64,000 bases of DNA from Vulcanimicrobiota bacterium (GTDB lineage: Bacteria > Vulcanimicrobiota > Xenobia > Xenobiales > JADMJV01), in contig JBFWNU010000003.1 in assembly GCA_050250895.1 (NCBI GenBank), positions 778,109 to 842,108 on the forward strand. Direction: 5' to 3'. Every line of letters starts with the position of its first letter. The stretch's first letter is position 1. Below the pieces are notes generated by a model. It did no database searches, had not been told where the DNA came from, and was given only the letters and a program-made list of their open reading frames with translations. Below, in pieces: positions 10,063 to 59,556 of this stretch. A program made the position numbers and the translations under genes.

Positions 10063-10094
10063 TCAAGGCATTTCCAAGGCCCCTCGGTTAGGAT
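10063..10094 (+). promoter_or_regulatory. Direct-repeat-activated promoter (TCAAGG-N5-CCAAGG-N9-TAGGAT); equivalent copies at 10445, 10918, 13097
   Basis: Hexamers and -10 are invariant in all 4 copies while copy 4 changes only spacer bases; the same architecture occurs upstream of the CarF-like gene. Confidence 0.7.
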
Positions 10095-10100
10095 TAGCTC

Positions 10101-10158
10101 AGTGAGATGAGCAAACGGTTGGAACTCGGAGGCCCCGGAAACGGGGCCTCTTCCTTTT
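10101..10158 (+). ncRNA. Putative small RNA, copy 1
   Basis: Starts 6 nt after TAGGAT; AGTGAGATGAGCAAACGGTTGGAACTCG, then GAGGCCCCG-GAAA-CGGGGCCTC and TTCCTTTT. Confidence 0.7.
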
Positions 10159-10482
10159 ATTCCCGCGCGGTCGCTGGCCTCGTCTGGCTCGGCGGGCCTG
10201 TCGGGCGCGCCTGGCGGGCAGGGGTAGGGCCGTACGGCGGAGGCTCTCCTGGGCCGTCTTCCGTGCGGAAGTGCCTCGCCGCGGCCTGGGTGTGGCGGGG
10301 CTGGCTGGTTGCTCTTCCGTGTGGAAGTGGCCTCGGCCGAACTGCCCTGGCTGGCCGGCGCGCTTGGCGGGGCTGGCGGGTACGGCACCAGGTGGCGCCG
10401 AATTCGGCACTTGGTGGTGCCGTACGGCGGTGGGGCTGGCCTGGTCAAGGCATTTCCAAGGCCCCTCGGTTAGGATTAGCTC

Positions 10483-10540
10483 AGTGAGATGAGCAAACGG
10501 TTGGAACTCGGAGGCCCCGGAAACGGGGCCTCCTCCTTTT
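10483..10540 (+). ncRNA. Putative small RNA, copy 2
   Basis: Identical to copy 1 except a G.U to G-C change at the base of the terminator stem. Confidence 0.7.
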
Positions 10541-10955
10541 ATTCCCGCGCGGGTCGCTGGCCTCGTCTGGCTCGGCGGGCCTGTCGGGCGCGCCTGGCGG
10601 GGCGGCGGGTAGGGCCGTATGGCGGAGGCTCTCCTGGGCCGTCTTCCGTGCGGAAGTGCCTCGCCGCGGCCTGGGTGTGGCGGGGCTGGCGGGTACGGCA
10701 CCAGGTGGCGCCGAATTCGGCACTTGGTGGTGCCATACGGCGGAGAGGCTGGCTGGTTGCTCTTCCGTGCGGAAGTGGCCTCGGCTGAACTGCCCTGGCT
10801 GGCCGGCGCGCTTGGCGGGCTGGCGGGTACGGCACCAGGTGGCGCCGAATTCGGCACGTGGTGGTGCCGTACGGCGGGGAGGCTGGCCTGGCCCGACTTC
10901 CGGGCGGAAGTGCCTGGTCAAGGCATTTCCAAGGCCCCTCGGTTAGGATTAGCTC

Positions 10956-11012
10956 AGTGAGATGAGCAAACGGTTGGAACTCGGAGGCCCCGGAAACGGG
11001 GCCTCTTCCTTT
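10956..11012 (+). ncRNA. Putative small RNA, copy 3
   Basis: Identical to copy 1 except one fewer T in the tail. Confidence 0.7.
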
Positions 11013-11110
11013 ATTCCCGCGCGATCGCTGGCCTCGTCTGGCTCGGCGGTCCAACCGGGCCAGCCCAGCCCGCGAGCGGGTTCGGCCGGTCGAAGGACGA
11101 AAGGTGAACC

Positions 11111-12067
11111 ATGCGATGGCAATGGTTGATATTGCTCGTGTTGCTCGGTTGTTCGCCCAGGACCACCCCGGTCGAGACGCCCAAGATCGACGAAGCCTTC
11201 CGTCCGCCGGATGAGGCGGCTCGCCAGGCGGCCATCGGCGAGGTGCCAAGCGAGCAAAAGGCCTGGTTCTCCACGGCCCACTACGAGCCGATCCAGGAGC
11301 CTCACTCCATGGACTGGCTGGCCAATCAACACGAAGCCGGGCAGACTTTTGACGAGTTCGTAGCCTCTCAGCCCAATCGCCCGGAGGGGTCCCGGTCGGT
11401 GGTCTACTTCCAGCCTATCGGGGAGTTCGGCGAGGATGCGCCTTCGCGACAGAAGCTGAGCCAGTTCACCTCGGCCTTCTTCGGGCTCAAAGTCGAGTGG
11501 CTCGACCCGCTGCCGACCGAGGGCCTGGGCGTGACCGAGCGTCTCAACGAACTCGAGGGGGAGCGGCAGTTGTTGACCGGGGACCTGCTAAAAGCACTCA
11601 AGAAGCGACTACCCGATGACGCCTACTGCGAGCTGGGCGTGACCATGGCCGACCTTTATCCGCGCGAAGGTTGGAACTACGTGTTTGGGGCGGCCTCGCT
11701 CAAGGACCGGGTCGGTGTCTATAGCTTCGCTCGTTACGACCCGGCTTTCTACGGCAATGATCGCAAGGATGGCTGGCGCGAACTGGTGCTATTGCGAAGC
11801 TGCAAGGTGCTGGCCCACGAGACGGGACACATGTTCGGTCTGGCCCACTGCATCCACTTTGACTGTTTGATGAACGGCTCGAACCACCTGGCCGAGACCG
11901 ATTCCCATCCGCTCTTTCTTTGCCCTGTCTGCCTGCGCAAGCTGCATTCCAGCGTGGGGTTTGACCCGGTGGCGCGCTATCGGGCACTCGAGTCGTTTTG
12001 TCGCGAGAATGGTCTGAGCGGCGAGGCCCAATGGTTGCAGCGACGCCTGGCTGAGCTCGCCGAGTGA
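11111..12067 (+). CDS. Archaemetzincin (peptidase M54) lipoprotein
   Basis: 'HETGHMFGLAHC..DCLMN...LCPVC' zinc motifs; lipobox LLGC. Confidence 0.9.
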   Translation: MRWQWLILLVLLGCSPRTTPVETPKIDEAFRPPDEAARQAAIGEVPSEQKAWFSTAHYEPIQEPHSMDWLANQHEAGQTFDEFVASQPNRPEGSRSVVYFQPIGEFGEDAPSRQKLSQFTSAFFGLKVEWLDPLPTEGLGVTERLNELEGERQLLTGDLLKALKKRLPDDAYCELGVTMADLYPREGWNYVFGAASLKDRVGVYSFARYDPAFYGNDRKDGWRELVLLRSCKVLAHETGHMFGLAHCIHFDCLMNGSNHLAETDSHPLFLCPVCLRKLHSSVGFDPVARYRALESFCRENGLSGEAQWLQRRLAELAE

Positions 12068-12106
12068 CCCAACAGGACAAGGCTTTACCGACCCGAACGG
12101 GGTCAG

Positions 12107-13033
12107 ATGAAGAGACTGTTCTGGTTACTGGTGTTTTGCCTGGTCGGATGCAATCGCACTGTCGTGACCCCAGAGATCCCGCCGCCGTTGGGCGAACTCA
12201 AGTATCAGCTGCAAGGCTACTCGGCTGACGGCCAGCAGGCCTTTGCCACTGACTTGCCGGGCGAGGCACGGGCGCTGCTTGGGCCTGACGAGCAAGGCAA
12301 CATCTACGTGACCATAGACGCCAAGCTGCTAGCCTTTGATGGCAACGGTAACCCGGTGGGCAAGGCCCAGGAGCCGCCGGGCACCCCGCGGGCGTTAGCG
12401 GGCCAGACGATTTTCTGCCAGAGCGAGAGCGGTGTTAGCGCCTATGACCGCGAGGCCAAGAAGGAACTCTGGAGTCGGCAACTCGAGAGCCCCCTCTGGC
12501 TGACTCCCTCGTCCGACGGCTTACTGGTCGGGACGTCCACCGAGTGTCATCTGTTGGATGCCGAGGGCAAGGAGATCTGGAAGGATCAGTTCGAGTATCA
12601 GCCGGTGGGGGCGTCAGCCGCGGGCGGGAGGGTGTTCGTGACGGTCTCCAAGCCGGCGCTCTACGCCTATGACCTGAAGACCGGTAAGAAACTGTGGGAA
12701 AAGAGCTGGGACGGTGGCGAGAACAACTGGGTCGGCAGCGTGTCGACCCCAGAGGCGGTTTTTCAGTCGCTTAGTTCGGGTTTGACGGCGCTCAAAGCCG
12801 AGACCGGCGAGGAACTCTGGTCGTCACCGGCCGAGACCCGGATGATAGCCTACCAGGACGGCAAGGTCTTTGGTCAGGCTCATCTCCACAAGGGGGTGGT
12901 GGTGGATGCCCTGACCGGCGAAACCGTGGCGGAGTTCGCGATGCCAATGTTTGTAACCATCCCCCTGGTTGCCGCCGATGGCAAGTTCTTCGTCACCGGG
13001 AATGTGGTTCCCAAGCTGCCTCAGGAACAGTAG
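12107..13033 (+). CDS. PQQ-like beta-propeller lipoprotein
   Basis: Repeated 'AYDxxTGxxLW' blades; lipobox LVGC. Confidence 0.82.
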   Translation: MKRLFWLLVFCLVGCNRTVVTPEIPPPLGELKYQLQGYSADGQQAFATDLPGEARALLGPDEQGNIYVTIDAKLLAFDGNGNPVGKAQEPPGTPRALAGQTIFCQSESGVSAYDREAKKELWSRQLESPLWLTPSSDGLLVGTSTECHLLDAEGKEIWKDQFEYQPVGASAAGGRVFVTVSKPALYAYDLKTGKKLWEKSWDGGENNWVGSVSTPEAVFQSLSSGLTALKAETGEELWSSPAETRMIAYQDGKVFGQAHLHKGVVVDALTGETVAEFAMPMFVTIPLVAADGKFFVTGNVVPKLPQEQ

Positions 13034-13134
13034 CTAAACTGTCCGTCGCCGTAAACGTGTGCGGCAGCGTCGGTGTCGACTTGCGGCGGAAGTGGGTCAA
13101 GGAATCTCCAAGGCATGTCGGTTAGGATTAGCTC

Positions 13135-13192
13135 AGTGAGATGAGCAAAACGGTTGGAACTCGGAGGCCCCGGCAACGGGGCCTCCTCTCTT
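13135..13192 (+). ncRNA. Putative small RNA, copy 4 (dispersed)
   Basis: Same body with one extra A (frameshifts any ORF); terminator loop GCAA is still GNRA; same promoter hexamers. Confidence 0.7.
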
Positions 13193-14405
13193 ATTCCTGG
13201 AGCGGCCCCATGGGGCTGATCAGCTCACGCAGCGACTCGATGGGCACGGGAACCTGCGTCGGTTGACCATCGTGGAAGAGATCCACTAGCACTAGCTTCT
13301 TGGGAGTGAGGTAGAACTGGGGCTCCTGGTCGAGAAAGTCGTCCGCCATTTTGAACTGGTATTCTCGGTCGGCGATGGGCCCGGCGATCTCTCTGAGCTT
13401 GGGCAGAGTGTCGCCGATGTTGGCTTTGAAGAGATCGCGATAGTTGTCTTGCCGACCGGTGTGAAGGCTGATGTTGCGGGTGGTAAAGGTGCGATTGTGC
13501 GAGCCGGCGCCGCGCAGCTTGCCTGAACTCTTGTAGAGCACGCTGATATAGTCGGCGTCGAGGCGGGTCACTTCGAAGCTGCGAAATTCGTAGTAGTCGT
13601 CTTCCCATTGATAGGGCTTGGGTGGAAAGGCCTCCTCGAGTTCCTTATTGATCCTGGCCTGGAGCTCGGTGTCGACCATGCCGCGCAGTTGGGGATAGTA
13701 GCAGGTGCTATAGAATCTGCCCACGTGCACCTTGCGCCCTTTGGTGACCAGGCGGGGCACACCGGTGAGGTCGGTGAGCAGATGGGTGAGAGCCGCGTTC
13801 TTGACCTCGGCAAGGCCGCCGTCGTCAGACTTCAAGTGGCGGGCGATTTCGACCGCTTCGGGCCGGTGGACGTTGCAGACCAGCTGAATTAGAAAGATGG
13901 AACGCAGCTCGGCATCGCGGCCCGGTTCCTTGCGGTGGCCGAATTCTGCCTCAGACAGCCGTTGCAGACGAGCCCGGGTGTCGTCTCCGAGTTCGGCCAG
14001 GGCGCCTTCGAGGGCATAGCCGACGTCACGATGGGTTTCGACCCGCAGTCGCTGCCGCAGGGGGGCGACGGCGGCCGGCGAGTGGGTGCCACCGAGTAAT
14101 ACCGCGCTCACGTAACGCTCCCAGGGCTCGGGGCTCGAGAGCTGTTTGACCAGCACAGCCACCTGGCCGGGACCGACGCGCGCCCAGTCGCGGCGGGCCT
14201 GACGATAGCGACGCAGGGTGCTGGCGCTGGTGTAGTTGCCCAACTCGTCAAACTGCTGCCAGTAGTGGCGAGCCGGTTCGACAGTCTCCGTGGGCAGTTT
14301 GGCCAGCACGGCCTTGAGGCCGTCATCGCTGCCCCAGCCCTTCTTGAACTGGTCGGCCTGGGCAGCCAGGCTAGCGATGAGCAGGATGGCGAGTAGGCGG
14401 CGCAT
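13191..14405 (-). CDS. Secreted HEAT-repeat protein with C-terminal PdaC/RsiV (DUF4163/DUF3298)-like region
   Basis: Signal peptide; HEAT-like 'LSSPEPWERYVSAVLLG..AVAPL'; 'YPQL..RINKEL..YISVLY..QFYLTPKKLVL'. Confidence 0.62.
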   Translation of the reverse strand: MRRLLAILLIASLAAQADQFKKGWGSDDGLKAVLAKLPTETVEPARHYWQQFDELGNYTSASTLRRYRQARRDWARVGPGQVAVLVKQLSSPEPWERYVSAVLLGGTHSPAAVAPLRQRLRVETHRDVGYALEGALAELGDDTRARLQRLSEAEFGHRKEPGRDAELRSIFLIQLVCNVHRPEAVEIARHLKSDDGGLAEVKNAALTHLLTDLTGVPRLVTKGRKVHVGRFYSTCYYPQLRGMVDTELQARINKELEEAFPPKPYQWEDDYYEFRSFEVTRLDADYISVLYKSSGKLRGAGSHNRTFTTRNISLHTGRQDNYRDLFKANIGDTLPKLREIAGPIADREYQFKMADDFLDQEPQFYLTPKKLVLVDLFHDGQPTQVPVPIESLRELISPMGPLQE

Positions 14406-14525
14406 TGCAGGAAGTTCGCGTCCGGTCGGGGGCTCTTCCTTTGAGAGGCGAGCCTGTTGCGAGGTCGAAATTCTTTCCGGCCCTGGTCTTCGTGTTGGGG
14501 CTCGGCTATGGCTCGCTCTCGCTAC

Positions 14526-15128
14526 TCATCCTTTTGTATCAGAAGGCGCGAGAGAAAAGGCCAGCGTGAAAATGGCGGTCCAGGCCAGCAGGGCCAGCCA
14601 CCAGGGAAGGGACCGCTCCCCCAGCCACAGTTGCCGATGAGGATATTCCACCCGGGTCGACCAGACCCAACCATGGCCCACTCGCAAGCTGACTTGTTGG
14701 TCGCTCAAGAAGAGGGCGTATTCGCCCGCTCGCGAGGCTTTGACACGCCAGACTCTCTGGCCGTCGAGGGTTACCGGTCCGGCCTCGATGGTCACTCCTT
14801 CAGGCACTTCGAGGACGCTGCCGCGCACCAGCACGCTCTCGCCGACCCGCAGAGGCCGGGCGTGCCAGTAGCCATAAAGCGGAAGCACCACCCAGGCTAA
14901 CGGGATGAGAAAGGCCAGCCCCGGTCGCAGTAGTTGGCGGCCCCAGACCAGGCTGGCCCGCAACAGGTCGGCCAGGCAGGCCAGGATTTGGCGGGGCACA
15001 TCGCGGTAGAGCCCGATCTCGAGCAGATGGCCGACCACGCGCTGGCCGGCGGCCGGGTCGACCAGGCGTCGATAGAGCCATAGCCAGGCGACTGCCAGCA
15101 ATGCGCCACCGAGCGCCAGCCCGCTCAT
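14526..15128 (-). CDS. Membrane protein (possibly DUF106/EMC3-like), last gene of the phosphodiesterase operon
   Basis: ATG overlaps the upstream TGA; three hydrophobic segments. Confidence 0.65.
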   Translation of the reverse strand: MSGLALGGALLAVAWLWLYRRLVDPAAGQRVVGHLLEIGLYRDVPRQILACLADLLRASLVWGRQLLRPGLAFLIPLAWVVLPLYGYWHARPLRVGESVLVRGSVLEVPEGVTIEAGPVTLDGQRVWRVKASRAGEYALFLSDQQVSLRVGHGWVWSTRVEYPHRQLWLGERSLPWWLALLAWTAIFTLAFSLAPSDTKG

Positions 15129-16786
15129 CGCAAGACTCGTCCCGGCAGGTGCGAGGGAAGGCCGAAGTGAGCCAGAATGGTGGGTGCCAGGTCGCGCAGG
15201 TGGGGATCGCTGACGTGGACGGCTTGATTGCAGAGCAGCACCCCCGGCACCAGTTCGGCGTCGATCAGGTGGTCGCCACTCCAGTGGTCGAGGTTGTCCG
15301 AGAGCACCTGGTCGCCGGCTTTGCCCAGGGCCGTCTGCCACGAGGCGCGATAGCCGCGCTCGTAGCCGATTAGCAGGTCGGGCCCGGTGGCCGGCCGTAC
15401 CACGCGATGGATGACCGGATGGTCGCCATCGCGCACGGCCAGCAGTCTTTGGCTCAGTTCGTCCCGCAGCTTGGAGTCGGGGTGGGTGAGGTAGAGGCCG
15501 TTGAATCCCACTGCCTGGGCCTTGCCGGCATAGCCGTTTTGGCCTAGCCAGGCGTTGAGGTCGAAGCTGCGATAGAAGGGGGCAAAGCCGTGGTCCGAGA
15601 CCACCAGCACCAGGGTCTTCGAGTCGGTCTTAGCGAGGATCATGCCGAGCAACTCGTCAGCCTGTTGGTAGGCCTTTTCGATGGCATCGGAGTGGCCGGG
15701 GGCCTGGAGCTTGTAGCCGGGATGCTGGGGGTCGCTGGCGCGCCAGTAGAGGTGCGAGATGATGTCGACCTGAGGGGTGTAAAAAAAGAGCAGGCCCGTC
15801 TTGTACTCGTCCAGGCTCTGGGCTAGCAGGCGCTTGCGCTCGGCGTAGACCAATTGGCTCTGGGTTAGAAACTCTTCGTCGTCGAACACTCCACTGGTTA
15901 GGGCCTTGGTGTCATCGGGCATGCCCTGGGTGTAGAACCGGCCGCAGTGGTGGTAGAGATGGCGGGCGAAGTCCTCGGGCGTGGCGATGGGCAGGCTGGG
16001 CCGGGCGGGATCGACGTTGAGAGGGCTGACATAGAGTCTGAACTCGGGCTCGGTGGCCTGTAGATAGAAGCGCACCATGCCGTCGACTCGGGTGAAGCTC
16101 ACCGGGACCCAGTCGCTCCACTGGCCGACTTTGAGCAACTCTTGCTGATCCTGAGTTCGGATGAAGGCGCTCTGTCCCTCAATGGCCACCTGGAAGGGAA
16201 CCGAATCACCGGCCGGACCCACCAGCGAGGCGCGGACCTGGCCGTCGTGCACCTCGACCGGCACGAAGCGGCCGCCTTCGAGTTCGCGGCGCGGGCCCGT
16301 GGAATAGAAGGAGAAGGTGCCGTAACTGCCCTCGAGATCGGGCACTCCCAGGCCGGCCAGAACCCGACCGCCAGGCTCGGGCGGAAAGTCGGCGGGTGTC
16401 TTGACCACGGTGACGGGTACCCGTCCGGCTAGTTCGAGCCAGAAGGGTTTGCCTTTGCGTTCGAGCTGGTATCTTCCATCTTTCACCGAGGTCAGCGAGG
16501 GGATGGCCTGGCCTTCGGGACCCCGGTGGAGAAAGTCGTGGATGCCGTGCTGGTCGGGGTCGAGACCGGTGACGAAGGTCGACCAGGCCACCGGGCTCTG
16601 GGGCGGATCGGTGGTGGCCAGGCGGGTTCGGTGGCCCAGACGCGCAAGGTTCGGCAGTTTGCCCTCGGCGATAAAGCGCTCGAGCAAGACCGGGTCACAG
16701 CCATCCACTCCGAAGATGACGACTTTCGGCTGGGGCTGCTGGCAGCCGCCCAGCAGCAGCAGCAAGCAAAGGAACACTAGACGCAC
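15125..16786 (-). CDS. Alkaline phosphatase / nucleotide pyrophosphatase-phosphodiesterase family lipoprotein
   Basis: 'GVDG', 'TTDPPQSPVAWSTF', 'DIISH', 'SDHGF', 'WSGDH'; lipobox LGGC. Confidence 0.9.
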   Translation of the reverse strand: MRLVFLCLLLLLGGCQQPQPKVVIFGVDGCDPVLLERFIAEGKLPNLARLGHRTRLATTDPPQSPVAWSTFVTGLDPDQHGIHDFLHRGPEGQAIPSLTSVKDGRYQLERKGKPFWLELAGRVPVTVVKTPADFPPEPGGRVLAGLGVPDLEGSYGTFSFYSTGPRRELEGGRFVPVEVHDGQVRASLVGPAGDSVPFQVAIEGQSAFIRTQDQQELLKVGQWSDWVPVSFTRVDGMVRFYLQATEPEFRLYVSPLNVDPARPSLPIATPEDFARHLYHHCGRFYTQGMPDDTKALTSGVFDDEEFLTQSQLVYAERKRLLAQSLDEYKTGLLFFYTPQVDIISHLYWRASDPQHPGYKLQAPGHSDAIEKAYQQADELLGMILAKTDSKTLVLVVSDHGFAPFYRSFDLNAWLGQNGYAGKAQAVGFNGLYLTHPDSKLRDELSQRLLAVRDGDHPVIHRVVRPATGPDLLIGYERGYRASWQTALGKAGDQVLSDNLDHWSGDHLIDAELVPGVLLCNQAVHVSDPHLRDLAPTILAHFGLPSHLPGRVLR

Positions 16787-18525: not shown

Positions 18526-18581
18526 CAGGCAATCATAACCGCTTCGCCAGGGTGGCGCAAACCGGTGGGGAAGTGTTGGGC

Positions 18582-19370: not shown

Positions 19371-19546
19371 AGTTGGATCAGGCCCTCTACGAACGGGCCT
19401 GCAAGGTGGCCGCTACGGCCGGGTTCTCGAGCGTGGAAGAGTTCGTCAATCACCTGGTCGAGCGCGAATTGGATCGGTTGGGCCTGGATGAGGAATTGGC
19501 CAGCGATCAGCTCCGCGAACGGTTGCGCGGGCTCGGCTATCTATAG
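19352..19546 (+). CDS. Small ribbon-helix-helix-like protein with 'LRGLGYL' tail
   Basis: 'RVKLDQALYER..AGFSSVEEFVNHLVEREL' RHH-like pattern; overlaps the upstream gene. Confidence 0.72.
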   Translation: MFGNRVKLDQALYERACKVAATAGFSSVEEFVNHLVERELDRLGLDEELASDQLRERLRGLGYL

Positions 19547-21595: not shown

Positions 21596-21675
21596 AACGG
21601 ACGATTCTGCAGGGTCGGGGTTGCCGCCTTTTCGCATGGGGGACGGGCCTGCTTCGATGGCAAAGATCCAGCAGC

Positions 21676-25743: not shown

Positions 25744-26184
25744 TTAAGCGAGGTTGTGTTTGACGGCGACTTCGATGAGACCGCGGAAGGCTCCGCAGCC
25801 GGCCATTCCACCAACCACGGCGGCTCCTACGGGAGCTCCACCGGTAGCGGCGACCGAGCCGATCAAGGACCCGGTGGCAGCCAGGCTGGCTCCCGCGATG
25901 GCTCTCTCGACGAGAGTGCCGGGGATGTCGCTTTTGGCGCCCATGTAGGCGCCCACCACACCCGAGCCGGCCGCGGCTACCAGCGATCCGCCCGGTCCGA
26001 AGTAGTTGGCCACCGCTCCAGCGGCAGAAAAGCCACCTACGGTCAAAATGTTGCGACCGACGATGCCGAGATCTTCGACGGCAGTCTTGGTCCAGGAATC
26101 CCCGGCCGGTTGCTGGCTGGGAGCCTGCTGAGCCGCGGCGCGATAGGGGGTAGGGGTTTGACGGGGGACAGAAGAGATGTGCAT
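25744..26184 (-). CDS. Glycine-zipper-like membrane protein with disordered N-terminus
   Basis: Pro/Gln-rich N-terminus, then GxxxG-rich hydrophobic helices; RBS GAAAGG. Confidence 0.75.
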   Translation of the reverse strand: MHISSVPRQTPTPYRAAAQQAPSQQPAGDSWTKTAVEDLGIVGRNILTVGGFSAAGAVANYFGPGGSLVAAAGSGVVGAYMGAKSDIPGTLVERAIAGASLAATGSLIGSVAATGGAPVGAAVVGGMAGCGAFRGLIEVAVKHNLA

Positions 26185-26224: not shown

Positions 26225-26256
26225 AGGCTAGTGTAAGGGCCTGAAAAAAACCTGAA
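26225..26256 (-). promoter_or_regulatory. Direct-repeat promoter TTCAGG-N5-TTCAGG-N9-TAGCCT
   Basis: Perfect 11-bp-period repeat (third CTCAGG at 26261-26266); same spacing to the -10 as in the sRNA promoters. Confidence 0.6.
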
Positions 26257-45157: not shown

Positions 45158-45163
45158 CAGGAG

Positions 45164-45976
45164 GTGGACGCCCTGGCCAGATGCATCGAGCAAGCCTGCA
45201 CCGAACCGCTTGAGCTCATCGTGCTCTATGGCTCGACGGCTCGTGGACAGGCCACCGCCGAGAGTGACCTCGACCTGGCTTTGCTACCACGCAATCCGCT
45301 CGGAGGTGTTCGTGACCTTGACCGTCTCACCAGCCGAGTTTGTCGCGAGATGGGCAGGGGAGACCTGGACCTTGCCTGGCTCCCGAACGCCTCGTGGTTG
45401 CTCTGGCAAGAGATTGCCCGCGATGGACAAATCCTCTTTCAAAGCCGTCCCGAGGCGCCGGCTCGGTTCCGGGCCGAAGCGGCTCTGCGGGTGGCCGAGG
45501 CCTTCCCCTGGCGCTATCGCGACCGCCGATTCGTTTCCAGATTTTTGCAGGGAGAGACCTTCGTGAACGATAGCCTGGTGTGGCGCAAACTGGCGATGAT
45601 GGCGCAGTATCTCGGCGAACTCCAGCCGGTTCTCGCCCTGGGACAAGAACGATTCCTTAGCGACCCGATGGTTCATCACGCGGCCGAACGCCTGGTGGAG
45701 CTTCTGGTCGAAGCCAGCGCCTCGATCAACAACGAGGTGGCTCAAGCAGTTGCCGGTATCCCGCCGTCTGACGATTACAGTTCTTTCTTTTCGATGGCCA
45801 ATTCTGGGTGGGTCGAGCGCGCCGTGCTCGAGCGACTGGCGGATTGGGCACGCATCCGCGATGCGCTGGTCCATCGCTACGAGGACGTGGCTCTGCCTGA
45901 GTTGTGGGAACGTCTTACCGCCTCGACTCCCGATTGGAAGACCTACCTGGCTCAAGTGCAGCAACGTCTCGACTAG
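45164..45976 (+). CDS. Fused MntA-type nucleotidyltransferase antitoxin + HepT-type HEPN toxin (type VII TA-like)
   Basis: GS-X10-DXD ('GSTARGQATAESDLD') and R-X4-H-X-Y ('RDALVHRY') in one frame; internal GGGAGAG + GTG at 45563. Confidence 0.85.
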   Translation: MDALARCIEQACTEPLELIVLYGSTARGQATAESDLDLALLPRNPLGGVRDLDRLTSRVCREMGRGDLDLAWLPNASWLLWQEIARDGQILFQSRPEAPARFRAEAALRVAEAFPWRYRDRRFVSRFLQGETFVNDSLVWRKLAMMAQYLGELQPVLALGQERFLSDPMVHHAAERLVELLVEASASINNEVAQAVAGIPPSDDYSSFFSMANSGWVERAVLERLADWARIRDALVHRYEDVALPELWERLTASTPDWKTYLAQVQQRLD

Positions 45977-49997: not shown

Positions 49998-50033
49998 GGG
50001 TGGGCTGTTCGGTGCCCTTGAGCGGGCTGCCTT

Positions 50034-50065
50034 TTAAGGCTGATTTGAGGGCCGGGGTTCACTAT
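50034..50065 (+). promoter_or_regulatory. Direct-repeat promoter TTAAGG-N5-TTGAGG-N9-CACTAT
   Basis: Same spacing as the sRNA and CarF promoters; upstream of the RBS of ORF 50092. Confidence 0.5.
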
Positions 50066-50091
50066 CAGACAAGGTCCAGCAGGAGGACGCC

Positions 50092-51123
50092 TTGAGGATT
50101 GACCAATTTACGGGCGAAGTACGACGCATTTCCCAGCGACCCCACCCGCTGGGCCAACAAATCATGGGCTCAAGCCACGCGTTTACCTGGCGGCTCGACA
50201 AGTTCGTGGGTCAGGATACACACGAAGCGCGGGCCAATCTTCTGCAACGGGCTCAACAGAACACTTCGCACAACAAATTCTGGAAGAACGTTACCTATGG
50301 CGTGGTCGGCGTGTCGCTGCTGGCGACTGCCGGGGCCCTGGGCGCCCACCAGGCGGGGCTGGCCGCGGGGGTCGTCTATGGCGCCCTTGGCCTGGCCGGT
50401 GCGGCCGGTGTGGCCAGCATCGCCAGCTTGGCTGCCGCTTCAGTGAATGGAAAGGTTAGCCAGCCACAGTCTGACCCGACCGTCCAGCGGATGGATGCCT
50501 GGCTCGACTTCGTGGCCAATCCCGAAGCCCCACTCTTTAGCCACCGCCCCGCGCCCGGCCAACCTCGAGTGCGTGACTTCACCCGCGCCGAGATCGTCGA
50601 TTTCGCTCAGCGGACAGCCGCGGCTCGCCAACCGTGTCAAGAAGTCGTGCAAAACACCACCGAGCAGATGCTGGGCCAGGTGGAGCGGCAAAGCGGCGGC
50701 ACTCTGTCTGAAATCGAGGCTAGCTTCCAGCGTTCAATAGGTAAAGCCCGACACAAAGCCAAGCTCGCTCGAGCTGCAACCTGGCTGACCGGCGGATTGG
50801 CAGTGGGAAGCCTCGCCTGTTTGGGATTGCTCGGCTCTCACCCCCTGCTTGCCGTAGCCGGCCCCTTCCTCGGTGCCCCGATTGGAGTGCTCGGAGCCCT
50901 GACCCTGTCTGGGAAGGAACGACACTACGATTGGCAAGCCAGAAACCTCGACTATAACCGCGAGTTGATGGAAAGCTTTGTCGACTACCTCAACGATCCG
51001 CTACTGGCCGCTCAGAGAAATCAGGCCTACGTGCACGAGCTGGCAGCCGGGCACGAGGTGATCCCGGTGGAGGAGACTTACGACTGGCTCGAGGTGGGCT
51101 CGGTCGGCCTGGCCAGAGGCTAG
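50092..51123 (+). CDS. Hypothetical protein with two hydrophobic helical hairpins
   Basis: TTG after AGCAGGAGGA; internal duplication (coil + 2 TM + 'xMxxxxD(F/Y)xxxP'). Confidence 0.78.
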   Translation: MRIDQFTGEVRRISQRPHPLGQQIMGSSHAFTWRLDKFVGQDTHEARANLLQRAQQNTSHNKFWKNVTYGVVGVSLLATAGALGAHQAGLAAGVVYGALGLAGAAGVASIASLAAASVNGKVSQPQSDPTVQRMDAWLDFVANPEAPLFSHRPAPGQPRVRDFTRAEIVDFAQRTAAARQPCQEVVQNTTEQMLGQVERQSGGTLSEIEASFQRSIGKARHKAKLARAATWLTGGLAVGSLACLGLLGSHPLLAVAGPFLGAPIGVLGALTLSGKERHYDWQARNLDYNRELMESFVDYLNDPLLAAQRNQAYVHELAAGHEVIPVEETYDWLEVGSVGLARG

Positions 51124-52880: not shown

Positions 52881-52962
52881 GGGCTCTGGGTTGGACTTTG
52901 CCACCAGGACTCCTTTTGGCCACCGCGAGAGGCTCAGCCCATCCAGGGTCGAAGTCTTCTCT

Positions 52963-54090: not shown

Positions 54091-54229
54091 GCGAACTTTT
54101 CCGGCCCCTCGTTCGTCTGAATTGACGTGACCAGCCTCGAGGTCGGCCAGGACCGTGACCTGGGACTTTTCCGTCTGGACACAATTCGGTAACCACGCTG
54201 TTACAGACTGTGATTACGATCTGGGCCAG

Positions 54230-55165
54230 ATGCGGATCAGTGGTTGGACCAACACTCCTGTCGGTCGGGCCGTCGATTGGCTAGATCGCAAGTCGAGCCC
54301 CGAGCCCGATACCGACGGGAACCTTGAAAACCCGTCCTACGTCCAGGTAGCCCTGGGCGCAGGCGTAGAGGGTCTGTTGCTCGGGGGCGCCTCGGGCGCA
54401 GTCGATGCTCTGGGAGGCGGTCTGGCCGGTGTCTTCGTCGAGAATCGTACCGGCAGTACCGCCGCCGGTGTGGCGGCCGGGTTCGCAGTAGGGGCGGGCC
54501 TGGCGGCCGCCCAATCCGCCTGGCTGGGAGCGGGGCCGATGCTCCCCTCCGCCGTTCTGGGCGGGTTATTGGGGGCCTTTCAAACCCTGGGCGGTAGCAG
54601 CCTGGCCGGAGTTCGTGATTCCAGCGACATGGGCGCCATCATGGCCGGCGTGTTCATGCCTGGCGCCAGCAAAGTAGTAGGCGGCCTATCGGCCGCCGCG
54701 GCCCAGCGCTGGGCCCCCGATAGCCTGGCCGCCCAGAGCGCCATGGCCGCTGTCATCGGGGGGGGACTGGGAGCAGCCGTCGGCGCTTTAGGTCAAGGCC
54801 CCGGCCTGGTCAGCTCCATTCTCATCGGGGCCGCTTCGGGGGCCGGTGGAAGCCTGATCGGCCCACGCTTCGGCCAGCTGGTGCGCACCCTCAGTTGCGA
54901 TGCCGGCGTAGCGGCCGAGGCCGGTCTCAAAAAAAGTGGACTCATCGACAAGCCCCTGAGTCCGATGGCCCGCACTCTACTGGGAGCGGTCCCCATCGGA
55001 ATGACCACCGAGCTGGCCAAAGCGGCGGTTTACGCTGACGGCGGCTGGAAGGGCATCCTGGTGGGCGGGGTGGCCCAGACCCTGCAGCTGGTCGATGTCC
55101 TACGTCAGACCGGGGATCAGCACGCCGGTTCGGAAGAAGAAGACGTGCTCAACACTTTGAGCTAG
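54230..55165 (+). CDS. Glycine-zipper-rich membrane protein
   Basis: Many GxxxG helices; ATG 9 nt after TACGAT. Confidence 0.75.
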   Translation: MRISGWTNTPVGRAVDWLDRKSSPEPDTDGNLENPSYVQVALGAGVEGLLLGGASGAVDALGGGLAGVFVENRTGSTAAGVAAGFAVGAGLAAAQSAWLGAGPMLPSAVLGGLLGAFQTLGGSSLAGVRDSSDMGAIMAGVFMPGASKVVGGLSAAAAQRWAPDSLAAQSAMAAVIGGGLGAAVGALGQGPGLVSSILIGAASGAGGSLIGPRFGQLVRTLSCDAGVAAEAGLKKSGLIDKPLSPMARTLLGAVPIGMTTELAKAAVYADGGWKGILVGGVAQTLQLVDVLRQTGDQHAGSEEEDVLNTLS

Positions 55166-55812
55166 TCGAAGCGGTAGCCACCGGCCAGGCTGGCCTCGCG
55201 CGGACGGTCCCGCGCCAGATACTGTTCGAGTGACTCCATGACCACCTCGCCGGGCTGGGAGCCCGGCAGGTAGTCGGCATTGTTGGTCGGGCGGTGAACA
55301 AAATTGCCGTCACCCACATAGACCCCGACGTGAGTGTGATCCTCGGGGTTGGCCGAGTTACGATAGGTATCGTTGAAGGCCACGATGTCACCGGGCTGCA
55401 GATTCTCGACGTCGATGGGCTGGGCGCCCATCTGGCCGAAATCGCGAGCTCGCACGGTCGGCTCGAATCCCTCGGGGTTCGTGCCCGACTGCTCGATGAC
55501 GTGGCTGACAAAGTCGGCGCAGCGAGCCTCTTCATCCGGTTTGAACTGGCTGCCGACCATGGATAGCGCCGTGTCGGCGATCTGTTGACCGGTGGGAGGG
55601 GTTCCCAGATCGCTGATGCCTTTGAGGGCGGCTGCACTGGCGCCAGGCTCGGTCTCGTCGGATTTGCCCACCGAGACTTTGTCCTTAGTCAGATCGGCCG
55701 GCCGGGCCTCGGATTTGGGAGAGGCGGCAGGCGCGCTTTTCGTGGCGCCTGCTGGGGATGCTGAGGGGCTTTTGCTGGCTGTCGAGCCAGCCGAACCAAC
55801 GCTACCTGCCAT
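55162..55812 (-). CDS. NlpC/P60 family cell-wall peptidase with disordered N-terminus
   Basis: 'CADFVS', 'LQPGDIVAF', 'HVGVYVGDGNFVH'. Confidence 0.88.
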   Translation of the reverse strand: MAGSVGSAGSTASKSPSASPAGATKSAPAASPKSEARPADLTKDKVSVGKSDETEPGASAAALKGISDLGTPPTGQQIADTALSMVGSQFKPDEEARCADFVSHVIEQSGTNPEGFEPTVRARDFGQMGAQPIDVENLQPGDIVAFNDTYRNSANPEDHTHVGVYVGDGNFVHRPTNNADYLPGSQPGEVVMESLEQYLARDRPREASLAGGYRFD

Positions 55813-55846
55813 CCTCTCTTCATTCACCGAGGCCCGGCCAAAACCT

Positions 55847-57292
55847 CTACACTGCCGCAGTCAACCGCTCGCTCAGCCACCTCTTGGCCAGTTCGAGATC
55901 GCGTGGCGTCAATTGGTGGGACGCCTCGACCTCGTCGAGCTGCACCCGAGCGCCGGCCTGACGCAGAACCTCGGCCAATCGTCGTCCCGAATCGGGGGAA
56001 ACGACCGTGTCGTGAGTGCCCACCACCAGCAGAACGTCGAGTCCTTCCAAGCTTTTGTCGGCAGCCTCGAGCGGCAGCATCGGCCTGAACAGCACAGCCC
56101 TTTTCAAGGCCTCGGGATGCAGCATCAACGTGGCCGCGGCCAGGTTGGCGCCGTTGGAATACCCCACGGCCACGTGCTCATGGCCCCGGGTCCTGATCAA
56201 TTCAGCCAACTCGCCGCTGCGGCGTTTGAGGTCTGCCTCGTCGAAGACGCCCGGCCTGAGTCGCTTGAAGAAGCGGGCCATGCCTTGCTCGTCGACGTTG
56301 CCTCGCAGGCTCAAGACCGCCGCCTCAGGGTCGAGTTGTTCAGCGATGCCCAAGAGGTCGAACTCGTCGCCGCCGGTGCCGTGAAGCAGCAGCAGGGTCG
56401 GTTGATTGCCCGGCTTGTGCAGGCTGCGGTAGGGCTCCTCGAGCGGTGGCAAGCGCTGCTCGAGCAGCTCGCGCAGGCGCTCGTGCTGGGGCGGAAGCAT
56501 CAGGTTGGTGCCCAGTTCGTCGAGGCTTTCGTCGATGAGCATGCCCGGGGGATCGGTAGCTAGCTCGAAGAGCACCCCGCCCGGACCTCGGAAGTAGACC
56601 GAGTGGAAGTAGTTGCGGTCGACCACCGGCGTCACCTGGTAGCCAGCTTCGAGAAGCCGCTCGCGCCACCAGAGCTGAGCCTCGTCATCGGCCACGCGCA
56701 GAGCGATATGGTGCACCGAGCCCGCTCCGCCGCTGGCCCGCGGCAGGTCGGGAGCCTCGAGCACTTCGAGCTGAGTGGTCGAGTTCGCCAGTTGATAGCG
56801 GCTGCGAGCTCCTTCTTCGCCGAGCTTGGCGAACCCGAACAGCTCGAGCAGCTCGGCGGTGGGACCACTTTGCTGGACCCTCAAGGTGGCCGAACGGAAG
56901 GCTCCGAACGGCTCGCCCTCGCCTTGCACGAGTTCATAGCGGATCCCGTCAGGGTCGTGAAACACCAGCACGCGCTCGCCAAAACGCGTCTCGAAGTGAT
57001 GCGGGCCGACGCGGGTGACCCAATCGTCAAGCGATTCCGAGGTCTGATAGGTGATGGCCGAGACCTCGCCGTGGCCGGGACGAGTCGCTCGCGCCCCTTC
57101 GTAGGGGAAGAAGGTCAACAGCGTGCCCGGACTGCCGGTCTGGTCTCCGTAGTAGAGATGGTAGACGCTGGGGTCATCGAAGTTGACCGTCTTCTTCACC
57201 ATCCGCAGACCCAGGGTCTGGGTGTGAAAACGGTAGTTCTGGTGGGCCAGTCCGGCCACCGCGGTGATGTGATGGATGCCTAAAATCTTCAT
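55847..57292 (-). CDS. Fusion of ring-cleaving dioxygenase (MhqO-like VOC) and alpha/beta hydrolase (MhqD-like)
   Basis: 'GIHHITA..KKTVNFDDP..HHIA..DRNYFHSVYF..ELATD', then 'LLHGTGG..GYSNGA'; RBS GAGGAG. Confidence 0.9.
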   Translation of the reverse strand: MKILGIHHITAVAGLAHQNYRFHTQTLGLRMVKKTVNFDDPSVYHLYYGDQTGSPGTLLTFFPYEGARATRPGHGEVSAITYQTSESLDDWVTRVGPHHFETRFGERVLVFHDPDGIRYELVQGEGEPFGAFRSATLRVQQSGPTAELLELFGFAKLGEEGARSRYQLANSTTQLEVLEAPDLPRASGGAGSVHHIALRVADDEAQLWWRERLLEAGYQVTPVVDRNYFHSVYFRGPGGVLFELATDPPGMLIDESLDELGTNLMLPPQHERLRELLEQRLPPLEEPYRSLHKPGNQPTLLLLHGTGGDEFDLLGIAEQLDPEAAVLSLRGNVDEQGMARFFKRLRPGVFDEADLKRRSGELAELIRTRGHEHVAVGYSNGANLAAATLMLHPEALKRAVLFRPMLPLEAADKSLEGLDVLLVVGTHDTVVSPDSGRRLAEVLRQAGARVQLDEVEASHQLTPRDLELAKRWLSERLTAAV

Positions 57293-57314
57293 TGAGTTTC
57301 TCCTCGACATCATT

Positions 57315-57332
57315 TGTCTTGATGTCAAGATA
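57315..57332. promoter_or_regulatory. MhqR-like (MarR family) operator palindrome
   Basis: TATCTTGA-CA-TCAAGACA on the minus strand, just upstream of the mhqO-like gene. Confidence 0.65.
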
Positions 57333-57508
57333 ATTTTAGGCGGTTTGATCCATCTTGTCAATCCCGGGCCGGAACGCTATACTGGGCCGCAAGGGCGCGA
57401 AGGGGCGCCCGGCCCACGAAAGAGGACCTCACCCTTCAGCACCGGTTGGACATTACAAGAACTCAGTCGCCTGGCAGTGGGATATCGGCGAAACGAAGGA
57501 GTGTTGTA

Positions 57509-58012
57509 ATGAAGATCCGAGTTCCCAATCTCGAAGAGTTCAAGATTCGAGCTTCGCTGTTGCTCAAAGCTCTCGACAGCGAAGACCCCGACAAGAAGGC
57601 CAGGGCGTGGGCGCGCTGGAGACGGCATTTTGAAGTGCCCGAGCAACCTCGGCGCAAGCAGGCCCTCCAGGTCGTCGCCCTGGAGAACGGCTTCGCCAGT
57701 TGGGCCGAGCTAAAGTCTCATTTCGAGCCGCAGGTGGGCATCACACTGTGCCCCCGCGGGTCGGCCGGTTTTCTCAACGAGTGGCATAACTCGTACGACC
57801 AGGCCAGCGCGGCCCGCCAACGCAGCAACGGCTATCTGTTGTTGCACGGACGCCATTTCTTCGTCTGTTCGCGCAGCTACATCGAGAGCGTGCTGGGGCT
57901 GGACCCTGACGACCCCGACTGGGACCGCATGGGCAGAGACTGGGCCCGCCCTCGCGACCCGAAGGCTCGCGAGCGACTGGCCCAGTCCCTGCCGGCCAAC
58001 TGCCGAGTCTAG
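57509..58012 (+). CDS. Hypothetical protein
   Basis: ATG after GAAGGAG; 'VVALENGFASWAELK' motif of small helical N-terminal domains. Confidence 0.8.
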   Translation: MKIRVPNLEEFKIRASLLLKALDSEDPDKKARAWARWRRHFEVPEQPRRKQALQVVALENGFASWAELKSHFEPQVGITLCPRGSAGFLNEWHNSYDQASAARQRSNGYLLLHGRHFFVCSRSYIESVLGLDPDDPDWDRMGRDWARPRDPKARERLAQSLPANCRV

Positions 58013-58920
58013 TCCTGGGTGTGGCGGGCGGCCATCTTGGCATCGGTGGCCGCCCACTCGGCCCGGATCATCCTGGCGAACTCGGCTCGGTTGAGGTCCT
58101 TCTGCTTGAGGAACTCGTCTTTGTCGATCTCGCCCAGGGCGAAGGCCTTCACGGCCGGGTCTTTCCACGAGTTGGGTTCGGCCCCGGTCACCTTATGGAT
58201 GGCTTTCTCCCACTTGCGGAAGAAGTCAATCTTGCCGAGAGGCTTATTCCACATGCCGTTGACGATGCAGTAGTAATCGTCCCAGGGCATCTTGTGGTGG
58301 GCCTGGTGGTTGGGCTTGGGCTGGGCTAGTCCCACCTTTTGCAGGACCTTGGCGATGGCCGGAGGGTTGTCCATATGGGCCCACCGGTGAGAGCCTTGAG
58401 CCAGATAGGCGCCCTCGAGGAAGGCCAGCGAGAAGGCCGAGGCCAGCGGTCCCGGGTTTAACGCTGCCGTAGCCAGCAGCGGTACCCACATCACTTTCCC
58501 GGCCTCATGGAGGTTGGTCAGGTAAGAGGACTTCTCGAGGCTATGGATGTTGTGGTGGTGGGTTTGGAATTCATAGGCCAGGTTGCCGATGATGGGCGTG
58601 TCCTCGTTGGGATAGTTGTCGATGAAGTGGTGAAAGACTCCGCTGACCAGGTCGGCGCTGACGTAGCCGGCCACGGCCGCTCCCAGGGCCAGCGCCCCGG
58701 TGGCGACTTTGTTGCCCACTCCCGGCTGGCTAGCTACGTCCCGCACGATGTTGGCCGCGATGGCTACTCCCGAGCCGAGGCAGAGAGCGGCTGTGACCTT
58801 GTGCGAGAGGGGAGTCTTGACGCTCGTCTCGACACGATCTTCAGGCTCTTGGTCCGCCGCCGGCTTGGGCGCGGCGGTTCGGGCCGGGGTAGGCATTGGT
58901 TTGACGGGTGTGATAACCAT
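58009..58920 (-). CDS. CarF/TMEM189/FAD4-family membrane lipid desaturase with N-terminal extension
   Basis: His motifs 'DLVSGVFHHFIDNY', 'EFQTHH', 'QGSHRWAH', 'HQAHH', 'YCIVNGMWN'; RBS AGCAGGAGGA. Confidence 0.88.
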   Translation of the reverse strand: MVITPVKPMPTPARTAAPKPAADQEPEDRVETSVKTPLSHKVTAALCLGSGVAIAANIVRDVASQPGVGNKVATGALALGAAVAGYVSADLVSGVFHHFIDNYPNEDTPIIGNLAYEFQTHHHNIHSLEKSSYLTNLHEAGKVMWVPLLATAALNPGPLASAFSLAFLEGAYLAQGSHRWAHMDNPPAIAKVLQKVGLAQPKPNHQAHHKMPWDDYYCIVNGMWNKPLGKIDFFRKWEKAIHKVTGAEPNSWKDPAVKAFALGEIDKDEFLKQKDLNRAEFARMIRAEWAATDAKMAARHTQD

Positions 58921-58951
58921 TTTCGTTCCTCCTGCTAATCTCTCTCGCATC

Positions 58952-58983
58952 ATTATGCCGCAGGAGCCTTGGAGAAGCCTTGA
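58952..58983 (-). promoter_or_regulatory. Direct-repeat promoter TCAAGG-N5-CCAAGG-N9-CATAAT
   Basis: GGTCAAGGCTTCTCCAAGGC closely matches the sRNA promoters (GGTCAAGGCATTTCCAAGGC). Confidence 0.72.
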
Positions 58984-59009
58984 CCCGTTTCGGCCGTTCC
59001 GGCCGACAA

Positions 59010-59117
59010 GGAGCGAGGGCTTCGCCCTCGAGAGGGGAGCCCGGCTTCGCCCGGGGGATGGGAGCGGAGCAAAGCTCCGAGAGGGGAGCGAATTGAGCTC
59101 CTCCTCAATTCGAGGAC
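59010..59117 (+). repeat. Array of 4 GGAG-tagged hairpins (third member of the family)
   Basis: Stems cgagggc/gccctcg, cccgg/ccggg, cggagc/gctccg, cgaattgag/ctcaattcg joined by AGAGG-GGAG or GGATG-GGAG. Confidence 0.8.
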
Positions 59118-59178
59118 GGGCGGCTGGGCGCGAGGTCTCTCGCCGAGAATCGGCTGGGATGGGGGGCCGGAGAGGGGT

Positions 59179-59490
59179 TTAGGCGGCCGACTCGAGCCAC
59201 CAGCGCAGGCTGGCGGTCTCGGTCTGGTCATCGGGAAAGTGCAGTCCCACAACCTGGCCGCATCCGAAGAAGCTCTGTTGCCAGACCGGGACGGCGACGA
59301 CGCTGAAGGTCTGTCCGTCGGGGGTCATGACGTGGACGGCCTGGCGGGTTCGCAGGCGCACGGGGGACTCGACCAGCACGCGGGCGCCCGTGGCCGAGAG
59401 GTTGAGGGTCTTACCCTGCATGTGGCGCATCAAGACCTGGCATTCCAGCGATTTTCTGGAATCGGCTCGGCGATTTTCGCAGCCTTTCAT
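59179..59490 (-). CDS. PilZ domain protein
   Basis: RxxxR ('RRADSR') and NxSxxG ('NLSATG'); RBS AAAGGA. Confidence 0.85.
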   Translation of the reverse strand: MKGCENRRADSRKSLECQVLMRHMQGKTLNLSATGARVLVESPVRLRTRQAVHVMTPDGQTFSVVAVPVWQQSFFGCGQVVGLHFPDDQTETASLRWWLESAA

Positions 59491-59524
59491 GCTTGTCCTT
59501 TCTTGTGTGCCACCTGCACTACTG

Positions 59525-59556
59525 ACAGTAGCGCGAAGGGCTGAAAGAAACATGAA
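59525..59556 (-). promoter_or_regulatory. Direct-repeat promoter TTCATG-N5-TTCAGC-N9-TACTGT
   Basis: Same spacing as the other direct-repeat promoters; upstream of the PilZ gene. Confidence 0.5.

Follow-up and report, generated by a model that had tools for sequence, protein, structure and literature searches.

The question of what brings together four sibling small RNA (sRNA) genes and a lipid desaturase gene was raised by a 64,000-nucleotide (nt) stretch of DNA from a Vulcanimicrobiota bacterium, in which the same direct-repeat promoter stands in front of each of them. This stretch, called the window in the following, corresponds to G000:C3:778109-842108, where G000 is the genome carrying it (9.5 Mb, 63% GC, 17 contigs) and C1, C2 and so on are its contigs. 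An earlier note on the window had proposed that one regulator of the OmpR/PhoB family, or two related ones, co-activates the sRNA genes, the desaturase gene, two orphan open reading frames (ORFs) and a PilZ gene through hexamers that recur every 11 base pairs (bp) in place of the -35 element. The analysis led to a different grouping. With moderate confidence, and judging from sequence and model comparisons, the sRNA and desaturase sites are taken to form one activator-dependent promoter class, designated class A, and the most likely activator of the sRNAs, the CarF-like desaturase and the other targets is P0001, a 738-amino-acid (aa) protein with a receiver (REC), a helical middle and a SARP-type module.

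The class A promoter and its targets

All five groups of repeats could be read in the window as the earlier note had described them. The motif TCAAGG-N5-CCAAGG-N9-TAGGAT occurs as an exact match on the plus strand in front of each sRNA gene, at 10063..10094 (copy 1, scoring 43.7 bits with the class A matrix of weights described below), 10445..10476 (copy 2), 10918..10949 (copy 3) and 13097..13128 (copy 4, 43.8 bits), and the N5 and N9 spacers of copy 4 are unlike those of copies 1-3, with the hexamers and the -10 being the same. The fifth site, TCAAGG-N5-CCAAGG-N9-CATAAT on the minus strand (58952..58983), has three mismatches to the sRNA motif, all inside the -10, and scores 36.8 bits, or 26.5 when it is left out of the matrix; 3′ of it come a ribosome-binding site, GGAGGA, and, at 58920, the ATG of the CarF-like gene. 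These five matches compare with 0.05 expected, and none of 100 shuffles of the window reached five. The 303-aa product of the gene (58009..58920, minus strand) belongs to the CarF/PEDS1 superfamily and shares with the CarF/PEDS1 plasmanylethanolamine desaturases the PF10520 lipid desaturase domain (147.3 bits, cutoff 26.4, E 6e-43). Unlike them, it stays below the NCBIfam CarF equivalog cutoff (NF045946, 100.1 bits against 500), and a search for related loci with this protein gave 352 pattern matches, of which none was confirmed, and no close relatives.

For the genome-wide scans, genes were called with an uncurated heuristic of our own based on ORFs and codon usage (8389 genes, 90.5% coding). 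Exact TCAAGG-N5-CCAAGG occurs nine times in G000, compared with 0 and 1 matches for the spacers N2 and N8, which keep the same codon phase, and none of the non-N5 spacers between N0 and N15 gives more than eight. All nine N5 matches lie in non-coding, promoter-like DNA; the N9 and N15 matches lie in coding-looking sequence. The class A matrix, 34 nt long and built from 10 non-identical sites, finds 27 sites above 16 bits and 17 above 20 bits, against two and one, respectively, in the genome read backwards, which served as the null. Seed sites left out of the matrix still score 17.8-40.9 bits, and the 14 sites of at least 30 bits are all intergenic. When one mismatch is allowed and a -10 required, four sites are found, all promoter-like, compared with 1 and 0 in the controls. 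The bare 12-mer with one or two mismatches was rejected as a marker of the class, showing no enrichment over the N2 and N8 controls. The degenerate pattern that the earlier note had put forward for a genome scan, YYVAGG-N5-YYVAGG-N9-YANNNT, gives 34 matches, of which 31 fall in the 12% left non-coding by these gene calls, against 0-7 for eight control spacings; the note had named a lack of enrichment in intergenic DNA as the outcome that would speak against it, and the enrichment is present.

The class A consensus can be written as GG-YCAAGG-N5-YCAAGG(C)-N8/9-TAnnnT. What is kept beside the hexamers is GG 5′ of the distal repeat and C 3′ of the proximal one; the C is found in nine of the 10 seed sites, and the heptamer YCAAGGC then ends 8 bp before TAnnnT. 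The spacers vary, and at unrelated genes the hexamers stay constant as the N5 and N9 segments diverge. At four sites (C4:84974, C1:824406, C2:196388 and C4:680454) an ATG lies 6 nt past the -10, which fits leaderless mRNAs starting 7 nt after it, and with this predicted start the repeats would cover about -38 to -33 and -27 to -22. The geometry of the class A sequences supports the idea of an activator-type design in which hexamers at an 11-bp period replace the -35. The same period stands out in the genome at large: any exact hexamer repeat with TANNNT in intergenic DNA gives 26-46 matches at period 11 and 0-16 at periods 9, 10, 12 and 13, with TTCAG words dominating. A four-repeat form of class A is found at a single site in G000 (C1:3777914), which explains the one exact site that has no -10 at N9.

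The strong match between the sRNA and CarF-like promoters, pointed out in the earlier note, was confirmed, and the link extends to further genes with sites of at least 30 bits. These are a fifth sRNA copy with another terminator (C4:344839), a pyridine-nucleotide-disulfide oxidoreductase of the NDH-2/SQR type (C1:816284-817408) and its paralog (C4:83758-84936), both recognised by Pyr_redox_2 and neither reaching an NCBIfam equivalog cutoff, two divergently oriented genes for small membrane proteins rich in glycine (C1:824028-824321 and C1:824444-824704), a 94-aa ORF (C2:199501) and a predicted leaderless 48-codon ORF (C2:196388). A site at C8:188487 is followed by a long untranslated stretch, and another, of 30.7 bits, precedes a 63-aa ORF (C1:3416811, region C1:3416563-3416811) that adjoins Asn_synthase and PqqD genes; if this ORF were truly the precursor of a peptide natural product, a SARP-type promoter there would echo the role that such promoters have in Streptomyces. 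Weaker candidates, of 13-24 bits, include C4:680454, C1:823961, C1:3308246 and C3:138537. The lipid desaturase, the two quinone-type flavoproteins and the small membrane proteins may hint at a response to membrane or redox stress; as to the contact or predatory lifestyle and the exported effectors that the earlier note had in mind, the findings favour neither side. Beside the divergent pair lie a gene resembling those of fatty-acyl reductases (NAD_binding_4) and a TspO/MBR gene (C1:824724-827850), and a photolyase gene lies 8 kb from the pair of class A sites on C2; together with the CarF-like gene, these neighbours hint at a light or lipid theme.

P0001, a candidate regulator of class A

P0001 (C1:817483-819699) is encoded directly 5′ of the flavoprotein gene on C1, on the same strand, and was characterised using Pfam, PDB and Foldseek searches. 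A Response_reg domain covers residues 5-110 (94.3 bits) and a BTAD residues 595-735 (61 bits, cutoff 22.1); the middle, about 370 aa, is helical and TPR-like, and the SARP module, consisting of a winged helix-turn-helix (wHTH) and the BTAD, takes up residues ~490-738. The last 259 residues have EmbR as their best PDB sequence match (E 3.4e-4), with an alignment across both domains. The AlphaFold model (pLDDT 82.7, from 15 aligned sequences) has as its top Foldseek match the SARP domain of AfsR in the S. coelicolor initiation complex (8k60_J, E 1.2e-7, target TM 0.75, 256 columns), with further matches to 8hvr_I and to EmbR (2ff4, 2fez), and the receiver pocket, D10, D11, D53, T81 and K103, is invariant in the 15 sequences. 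P0001 therefore has the domain order of the SARPs, a winged helix and then the BTA domain, as seen from the BTAD score, EmbR and Foldseek, and it departs from the description of that family in the C-terminal position of the module, the receiver fusion and the non-actinomycete host. The P0001 operon has a canonical TTGACA-N17-CATAAC promoter, and the genes lying 5′ of P0001 in the same direction code for an AstE/AspA-like protein, a HisKA protein and a Ser/Thr kinase fused to a periplasmic-binding domain. Metagenomic homologs share 48-93% identity with it, the closest named one coming from a Candidatus Xenobia metagenome-assembled genome (MAG); in open-access text, no literature was found on REC-SARP hybrids or on Eremiobacterota/Xenobia promoters.

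P0001 is tied to class A by its position in the genome and by its distribution among genomes. Among the 30 BTAD genes that were mapped to the gene calls, it alone has class A sites within 8 kb, namely four, at 817474, 823961, 824396 and 824406 of C1. A perfect 11-bp direct repeat with a -10 lies directly 3′ of three of the 30, each with another word: the GGTCAAGG repeat promoter starts 9 nt past the stop codon of P0001, a TTTGAGT repeat promoter (C1:3333277) follows a 612-aa REC-Trans_reg_C-BTAD gene (C1:3333274-3335112), and a CTGCAACC repeat promoter (C10:129355) follows a 973-aa gene (C10:126429-129350). Just 5′ of the P0001 operon, on the minus strand at C1:823870-823961, there is a weaker class A site, TCAAGG/TCAAGA/TAAGCT (19.3 bits); the RNA predicted for this region is short, has its own terminator and carries a seed loosely like that of the sRNA family (GAGTGAGAATAGATAGC...GTTGG).

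The distribution was followed in the family of G000 (f1, 15 other genomes), a family of small genomes (f2, 19 genomes) and another family (f3, 5 genomes). Full-length orthologs of P0001, with 53-54% identity, are present in four of the five f3 genomes and in none of the 15 f1 or 19 f2 genomes, the best match in f1 being one of 35% identity over the C-terminus. All four f3 orthologs have TCAAGG-N5-YCAAGG at their 3′ ends, followed by two degenerate repeats and then by a -10 with a leaderless ATG. The four-repeat form of class A is likewise found in all five f3 genomes (16 matches) and in none of the 15 other f1 or the 19 f2 genomes, and the two-repeat form, with 10 matches in G000, is absent from the 15 other f1 genomes and from a 300-genome sample of the phylum, except for single matches in two f3 genomes. 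The patterns used for these counts included the -10, since the relaxed 12-mer fails to separate the genomes: it was rejected as a discriminator with 4-8 matches in f3 and 1-7 in five other f1 genomes, where about five are expected by chance by our own arithmetic. A single class A match was seen at G105:C167. At G061:C140, G070:C30 and G107:C84, four-repeat class A promoters of f3 stand before non-coding sequence that is conserved (…GAGCACGGTCAACAGCGGCGCAACAAC…), possibly another sRNA or a leader.

Several points weigh against P0001 as the activator. The Trans_reg_C match (residues 515-569, 17.8 bits) is below the curated cutoff, and about 30 P0001-like paralogs are present in G000. Five of the 14 strong class A sites belong to sRNA duplicates, and three of the sRNA promoters are identical and thus not independent sites. 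The f3 genome G061, 90% complete, has class A sites and no P0001 ortholog at E <= 1e-60, and the f3 promoters mostly have four repeats, those of G000 two. The assignment rests on adjacency and on co-occurrence in two independent lineages, G000 and one f3 genus. Published SARP modules are N-terminal and are reported from actinomycetes (PMC10936776, PMC10972967).

These points leave room for a classical OmpR/PhoB response regulator of about 230 aa (REC and Trans_reg_C), encoded elsewhere, that would bind class A, with P0001 as a mere neighbour and target. Promoters of the Pho-box type are, as generally understood, built from the same 11-bp-phased repeats beside a -10, and the genome-wide survey of regulators made here covered the BTAD proteins. 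PhoP sites, too, are given as 7-bp repeats with a 4-bp spacer in the abstract of PMC4832192. Such a regulator is nevertheless considered unlikely: no DNA-binding regulator besides P0001 is seen in the annotated flanks of the class A sites, the repeats accompany P0001 orthologs at 53% identity, the phyletic pattern of class A fits P0001, and the 8 bp between the proximal repeat and the -10 is the SARP rule as set out in PMC10936776.

The sRNA family and the other repeat classes

The four sRNA copies of the window, all on the plus strand and with predicted ends, lie at 10101..10161 (copy 1, variant 1), 10483..10543 (copy 2), 10956..11015 (copy 3) and 13135..13196 (copy 4, whose seed has an additional A), copies 2 and 3 being recognised by sequence and repeat family and copy 4 by sequence and fold. 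Copy 1 is predicted to start with the A of AGTGAGATGAGC, 7 nt past the -10. Each of the four promoters is followed by TAGCTC, then AGTGAGATGAGCAAACGGTTGGAAC, a GC hairpin and a U tract, so that the predicted sRNA has about 60 nt, with an open 5′ region of about 27 nt before the hairpin. Folding gave -25.1 kcal/mol for copy 1 (z -3.08) and -27.9 kcal/mol for copy 4 (z -3.37), and three of the copies are 96-100% identical across 103 nt, promoter included. Public sequencing runs were looked for over 9950-13250, and none was listed, nor any source of RNA reads. An Rfam scan of the window found no family at the gathering score; the best sub-threshold match, sX12 (21.5 against 106 bits), is at chance level (E <= 10). 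The 1.1-kb array also holds a 76-nt repeat with a long palindrome (GGCACCAGGTGGCGCC GAATTC GGCAC.TGGTGGTGCC) located 5′ of the sRNA promoters, at 9966-10058, 10348-10440, 10678-10753 and 10812-10887, and is filled by further G-rich repeats (families D5-D7).

The family is genus-specific and multi-copy. The core GTGAGATGAGC-N3-6-GGTTGGA has 20 copies in G000 (further loci include C1:1327854, C8:237403 and C7:148006), 11 in G001, the sole other genome of the genus, and none in 38 further genomes of the order; a separate contig scan for the core also gave no stretch. Class A is found at five of the G000 copies only, those of variant GCAAACGG. The 15 others have a slightly different seed, GCATTGG, on a promoter designated class C, TTAACG-N5-GTGACG-N9-TAAAGT followed by N6 and an A start, in which the geometry of class A recurs with other words. 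Class C was also found at two further seed variants of G000 and at three G001 copies that were inspected, and TKRACG-N5-KTRACG gives 39 matches in G000, compared with 5-19 for other spacers.

Since one sRNA family is found on two promoter classes, the sRNA body and the promoter are separable, which argues against simple co-duplication. This bears on the possibility that the common sequence reflects descent from a copied, promoter-bearing repeat and not a common regulator. The sRNA genes are indeed duplicated, with the promoter included in the near-identity of the three window copies, and they sit in a region rich in other repeats. What the CarF-like, flavoprotein and small membrane protein genes have in common, however, is limited to the hexamers, the GG and C beside them and the -10; their spacers and flanks are unrelated, and in a family with 53% protein identity the same words recur at orthologous positions. 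Together with the second repeat class on the same sRNAs, this makes copying alone scarcely probable at all.

As to what the sRNAs might act on, the 27-nt seed was scanned for duplexes with 8386 translation-initiation regions, and no excess relative to shuffled seeds was seen. The strongest duplex (-33.9 kcal/mol), located 5′ of an ABC-ATPase gene (C1:2141698), compares with minima of -28.3 to -32.6 for eight shuffled seeds and is a lead only; apparent 13-mer 'targets' were discarded when they proved to be further sRNA gene copies on the opposite strand. In having near-identical copies, an unstructured conserved 5′ seed and differing terminators, the family is like the Qrr and LhrC sibling sRNAs as we know them. 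It is unlike them in its 20 copies per genome, its two promoter classes and its want of an Rfam match or a convincing target.

The three looser groups of the earlier note did not hold together with class A: where real class A sites score at least 30 bits, they score -11.1, -0.2 and -13.3. The promoter of the orphan ORF of 146 aa (25744..26184, minus strand, without a Pfam family), TTCAGG-N5-TTCAGG-N9-TAGCCT at 26225..26256 on the minus strand (-0.2 bits), fits instead a class B, tTTCAG-N6-TTCAG-N10-TAgnCT, with 36.5 bits. So does that of the PilZ gene, TTCATG-N5-TTCAGC-N9-TACTGT at 59525..59556 on the minus strand (22.8 bits in class B, -13.3 in class A), the 103-aa product of which (59179..59490, minus strand) is a borderline pass on PF07238 (22.9 bits, cutoff 22.5). 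The third, TTAAGG-N5-TTGAGG-N9-CACTAT at 50034..50065 on the plus strand (-11.1 bits), in front of a 343-aa ORF (50092..51123, plus strand) that has no Pfam family, is outside the class B matches of the window above 14 bits and belongs to a small class D: TTRAG-N6-TTRAG-N10-YANNNT has nine matches in the genome, this one included, and 0-1 at four other spacings. The three genes share the promoter design with the sRNAs and differ in the repeat words, and are thus most likely under different regulators; a common regulation with the sRNAs is not to be presumed for them.

Class B stands on its own and extends through the lineage. TTCAG-N6-TTCAG gives 74 matches in G000 against 8-12 at six neighbouring spacers, and the class B matrix finds 261 sites above 16 bits against one in the reversed genome, where none exceeds 20 bits. 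A gene start on the same strand lies within 300 nt of 247 of the 261 sites, exactly 6 nt past the -10 in 78 cases; among 20 class B genes drawn at random, 12 have no Pfam family and the other eight code for assorted accessory enzymes. Each of the 15 other genomes of the family has the class (3-46 matches each, controls 0-1), as do the five genomes of another family within the order (25-56 matches); it is nearly absent from f2 and from most of 121 phylum genomes sampled. In G000, TANNNT-N6-ATG/GTG in frame with genes occurs 589 times, compared with 102 for N5 and 257 for N7, which suggests several hundred leaderless mRNAs as far as sequence patterns can tell. Among 846 candidate leaderless starts, TTCAG is found at -15 and -26 from the -10 (73 and 56 cases), against 42 cases of canonical TTGAC at -23/-24, and TTAAG and TTGAG are also enriched at -15.

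The presence of canonical TTGAC promoters sets the repeat promoters apart as a distinct design. An alternative sigma factor, for which TCAAGG would be an unusual -35, could be imagined to read the hexamers, given that the -10 is common to all classes, that the distal hexamers loosely resemble TTGACA and that canonical TTGAC promoters also occur in G000. The distances argue otherwise: 20 bp separate the -10 from the distal hexamer and 9 bp from the proximal one, where sigma-70-type promoters, as usually described, have 16-19 bp; a tandem duplication at one helical turn is typical of dimeric winged-helix binding, and the f3 promoters have four phased repeats. A sigma factor is therefore held to be very unlikely.

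G000 has 40 BTAD matches, about 30 of them in frames of ~700-1000 aa with a REC...BTAD layout (for example C5:358976-361162 and C6:247051-249501), and the REC...wHTH-BTAD family is present in similar numbers in all 15 family genomes. ORF 26184, PilZ and ORF 50092 are presumably served by other members of this REC-SARP set of roughly 30 or by other winged-helix regulators. A search for the class B regulator found class B sites near BTAD genes at chance density, and no BTAD operon other than that of P0001 had a matching direct repeat upstream. A tentative reading, judged somewhat short of probable, is that in this large-genome, Xenobia-like lineage of the Eremiobacterota the expanded REC-SARP hybrids (~30 per genome) have taken over much of promoter recognition, each reading its own 11-bp-phased word, as a modular, genome-scale 'sigma adaptation' code outside Actinobacteria. 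The words may be YCAAGG, TTCAG, TTRACG/GTGACG, TTRAG and TGCAAC, of which TTCAG may serve ~260 mostly orphan and often leaderless genes and is kept in two families, and the sRNA family may be wired to two words.

Unrelated to these promoters, the window also contains a 270-aa ORF (45164-45976, plus strand) in which a nucleotidyltransferase (Polbeta/NTP_transf_2) is joined to a HepT-like RNase domain, resembling a fused MNT-HepT toxin-antitoxin protein.

Proposed mechanism and comparison with known systems

To our knowledge, SARPs are exclusive to actinomycetes. In PMC10936776 and PMC10972967, activation by SARPs is treated as an actinomycete device for antibiotic clusters. By the description in the former, 8 bp separate the 3′ repeat of a SARP promoter from the -10, and neighbouring repeats are set at a distance of 11 or 22 bp; the 22-bp afs box is centred at -29.5, with the upstream repeat (-40 to -30) overlapping a poor -35 at -38 to -33, and the mechanism of AfsR is likened to 'sigma adaptation'. 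PMC10972967 gives heptameric repeats, sometimes three per site. Class A has both the 11-bp period and the 3′ heptamer 8 bp from the -10, and its hexamers, counted from the predicted start, match the layout of the afs box, from which it would be expected to work like a SARP promoter.

On this basis, two winged-helix protomers of the activator would occupy both YCAAGG repeats on the same face of the helix, substitute for recognition of the -35 and pass RNA polymerase on to the -10 (TAnnnT), in the manner of AfsR at the promoter of afsS. The P0001 receiver has an intact phospho-acceptor pocket, and phosphorylated P0001 would turn on the five sRNA copies, the CarF-like desaturase, the two NDH-2/SQR-like flavoproteins, several small glycine-rich membrane proteins and the short sRNA-like transcript just 5′ of its own operon. 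The SARP geometry appears here in an uncultured phylum, where it would be fused to two-component signalling, be used at about 300 promoters of several classes and drive sRNA genes. P0001 and class A would make up a concrete regulator-operator pair that is testable in vitro without culture, and the regulons could be read directly from MAG sequence.

The binding mode is one that P0001 would share with PhoB at the pho box and with OmpR class II activators as commonly described, in which a winged helix controlled by a receiver binds tandem repeats one turn apart that replace the -35. P0001 differs from that family in having a BTAD and a 370-aa insert, in being three times longer (738 aa against ~230) and in its Trans_reg_C score below the cutoff. 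Where the earlier note had proposed an OmpR/PhoB regulator, the best-supported regulator family has an OmpR-like winged helix and a receiver (Pfam, Foldseek) and is of the SARP type, with wHTH and BTAD, in place of the classical OmpR/PhoB type; the model of the note was probably right on the mode of binding and wrong on the subfamily. EmbR of M. tuberculosis (2fez, 2ff4) is similar in that its SARP module, too, is coupled to signalling by kinases, P0001 having a gene for a Ser/Thr kinase next to its own, and is unlike P0001 in having an FHA domain, no receiver and an N-terminal module. Closest are AfsR and the SARPs (8k60, 8hvr), with which the system shares the 11-bp repeats, the 8 bp to the -10 and, if the predicted start holds, the overlap with the -35 region, and on which the C-terminal 256 residues of P0001 superpose with a TM of 0.75. 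In contrast to the large SARPs, where an N-terminal module is followed by NOD-TPR, the module of P0001 is C-terminal, behind a receiver and a helical/TPR-like region; its host is an uncultured, Ca. Xenobia-like member of the Eremiobacterota with about 30 paralogs, and its candidate targets are sRNA and membrane or redox genes in place of an antibiotic cluster.

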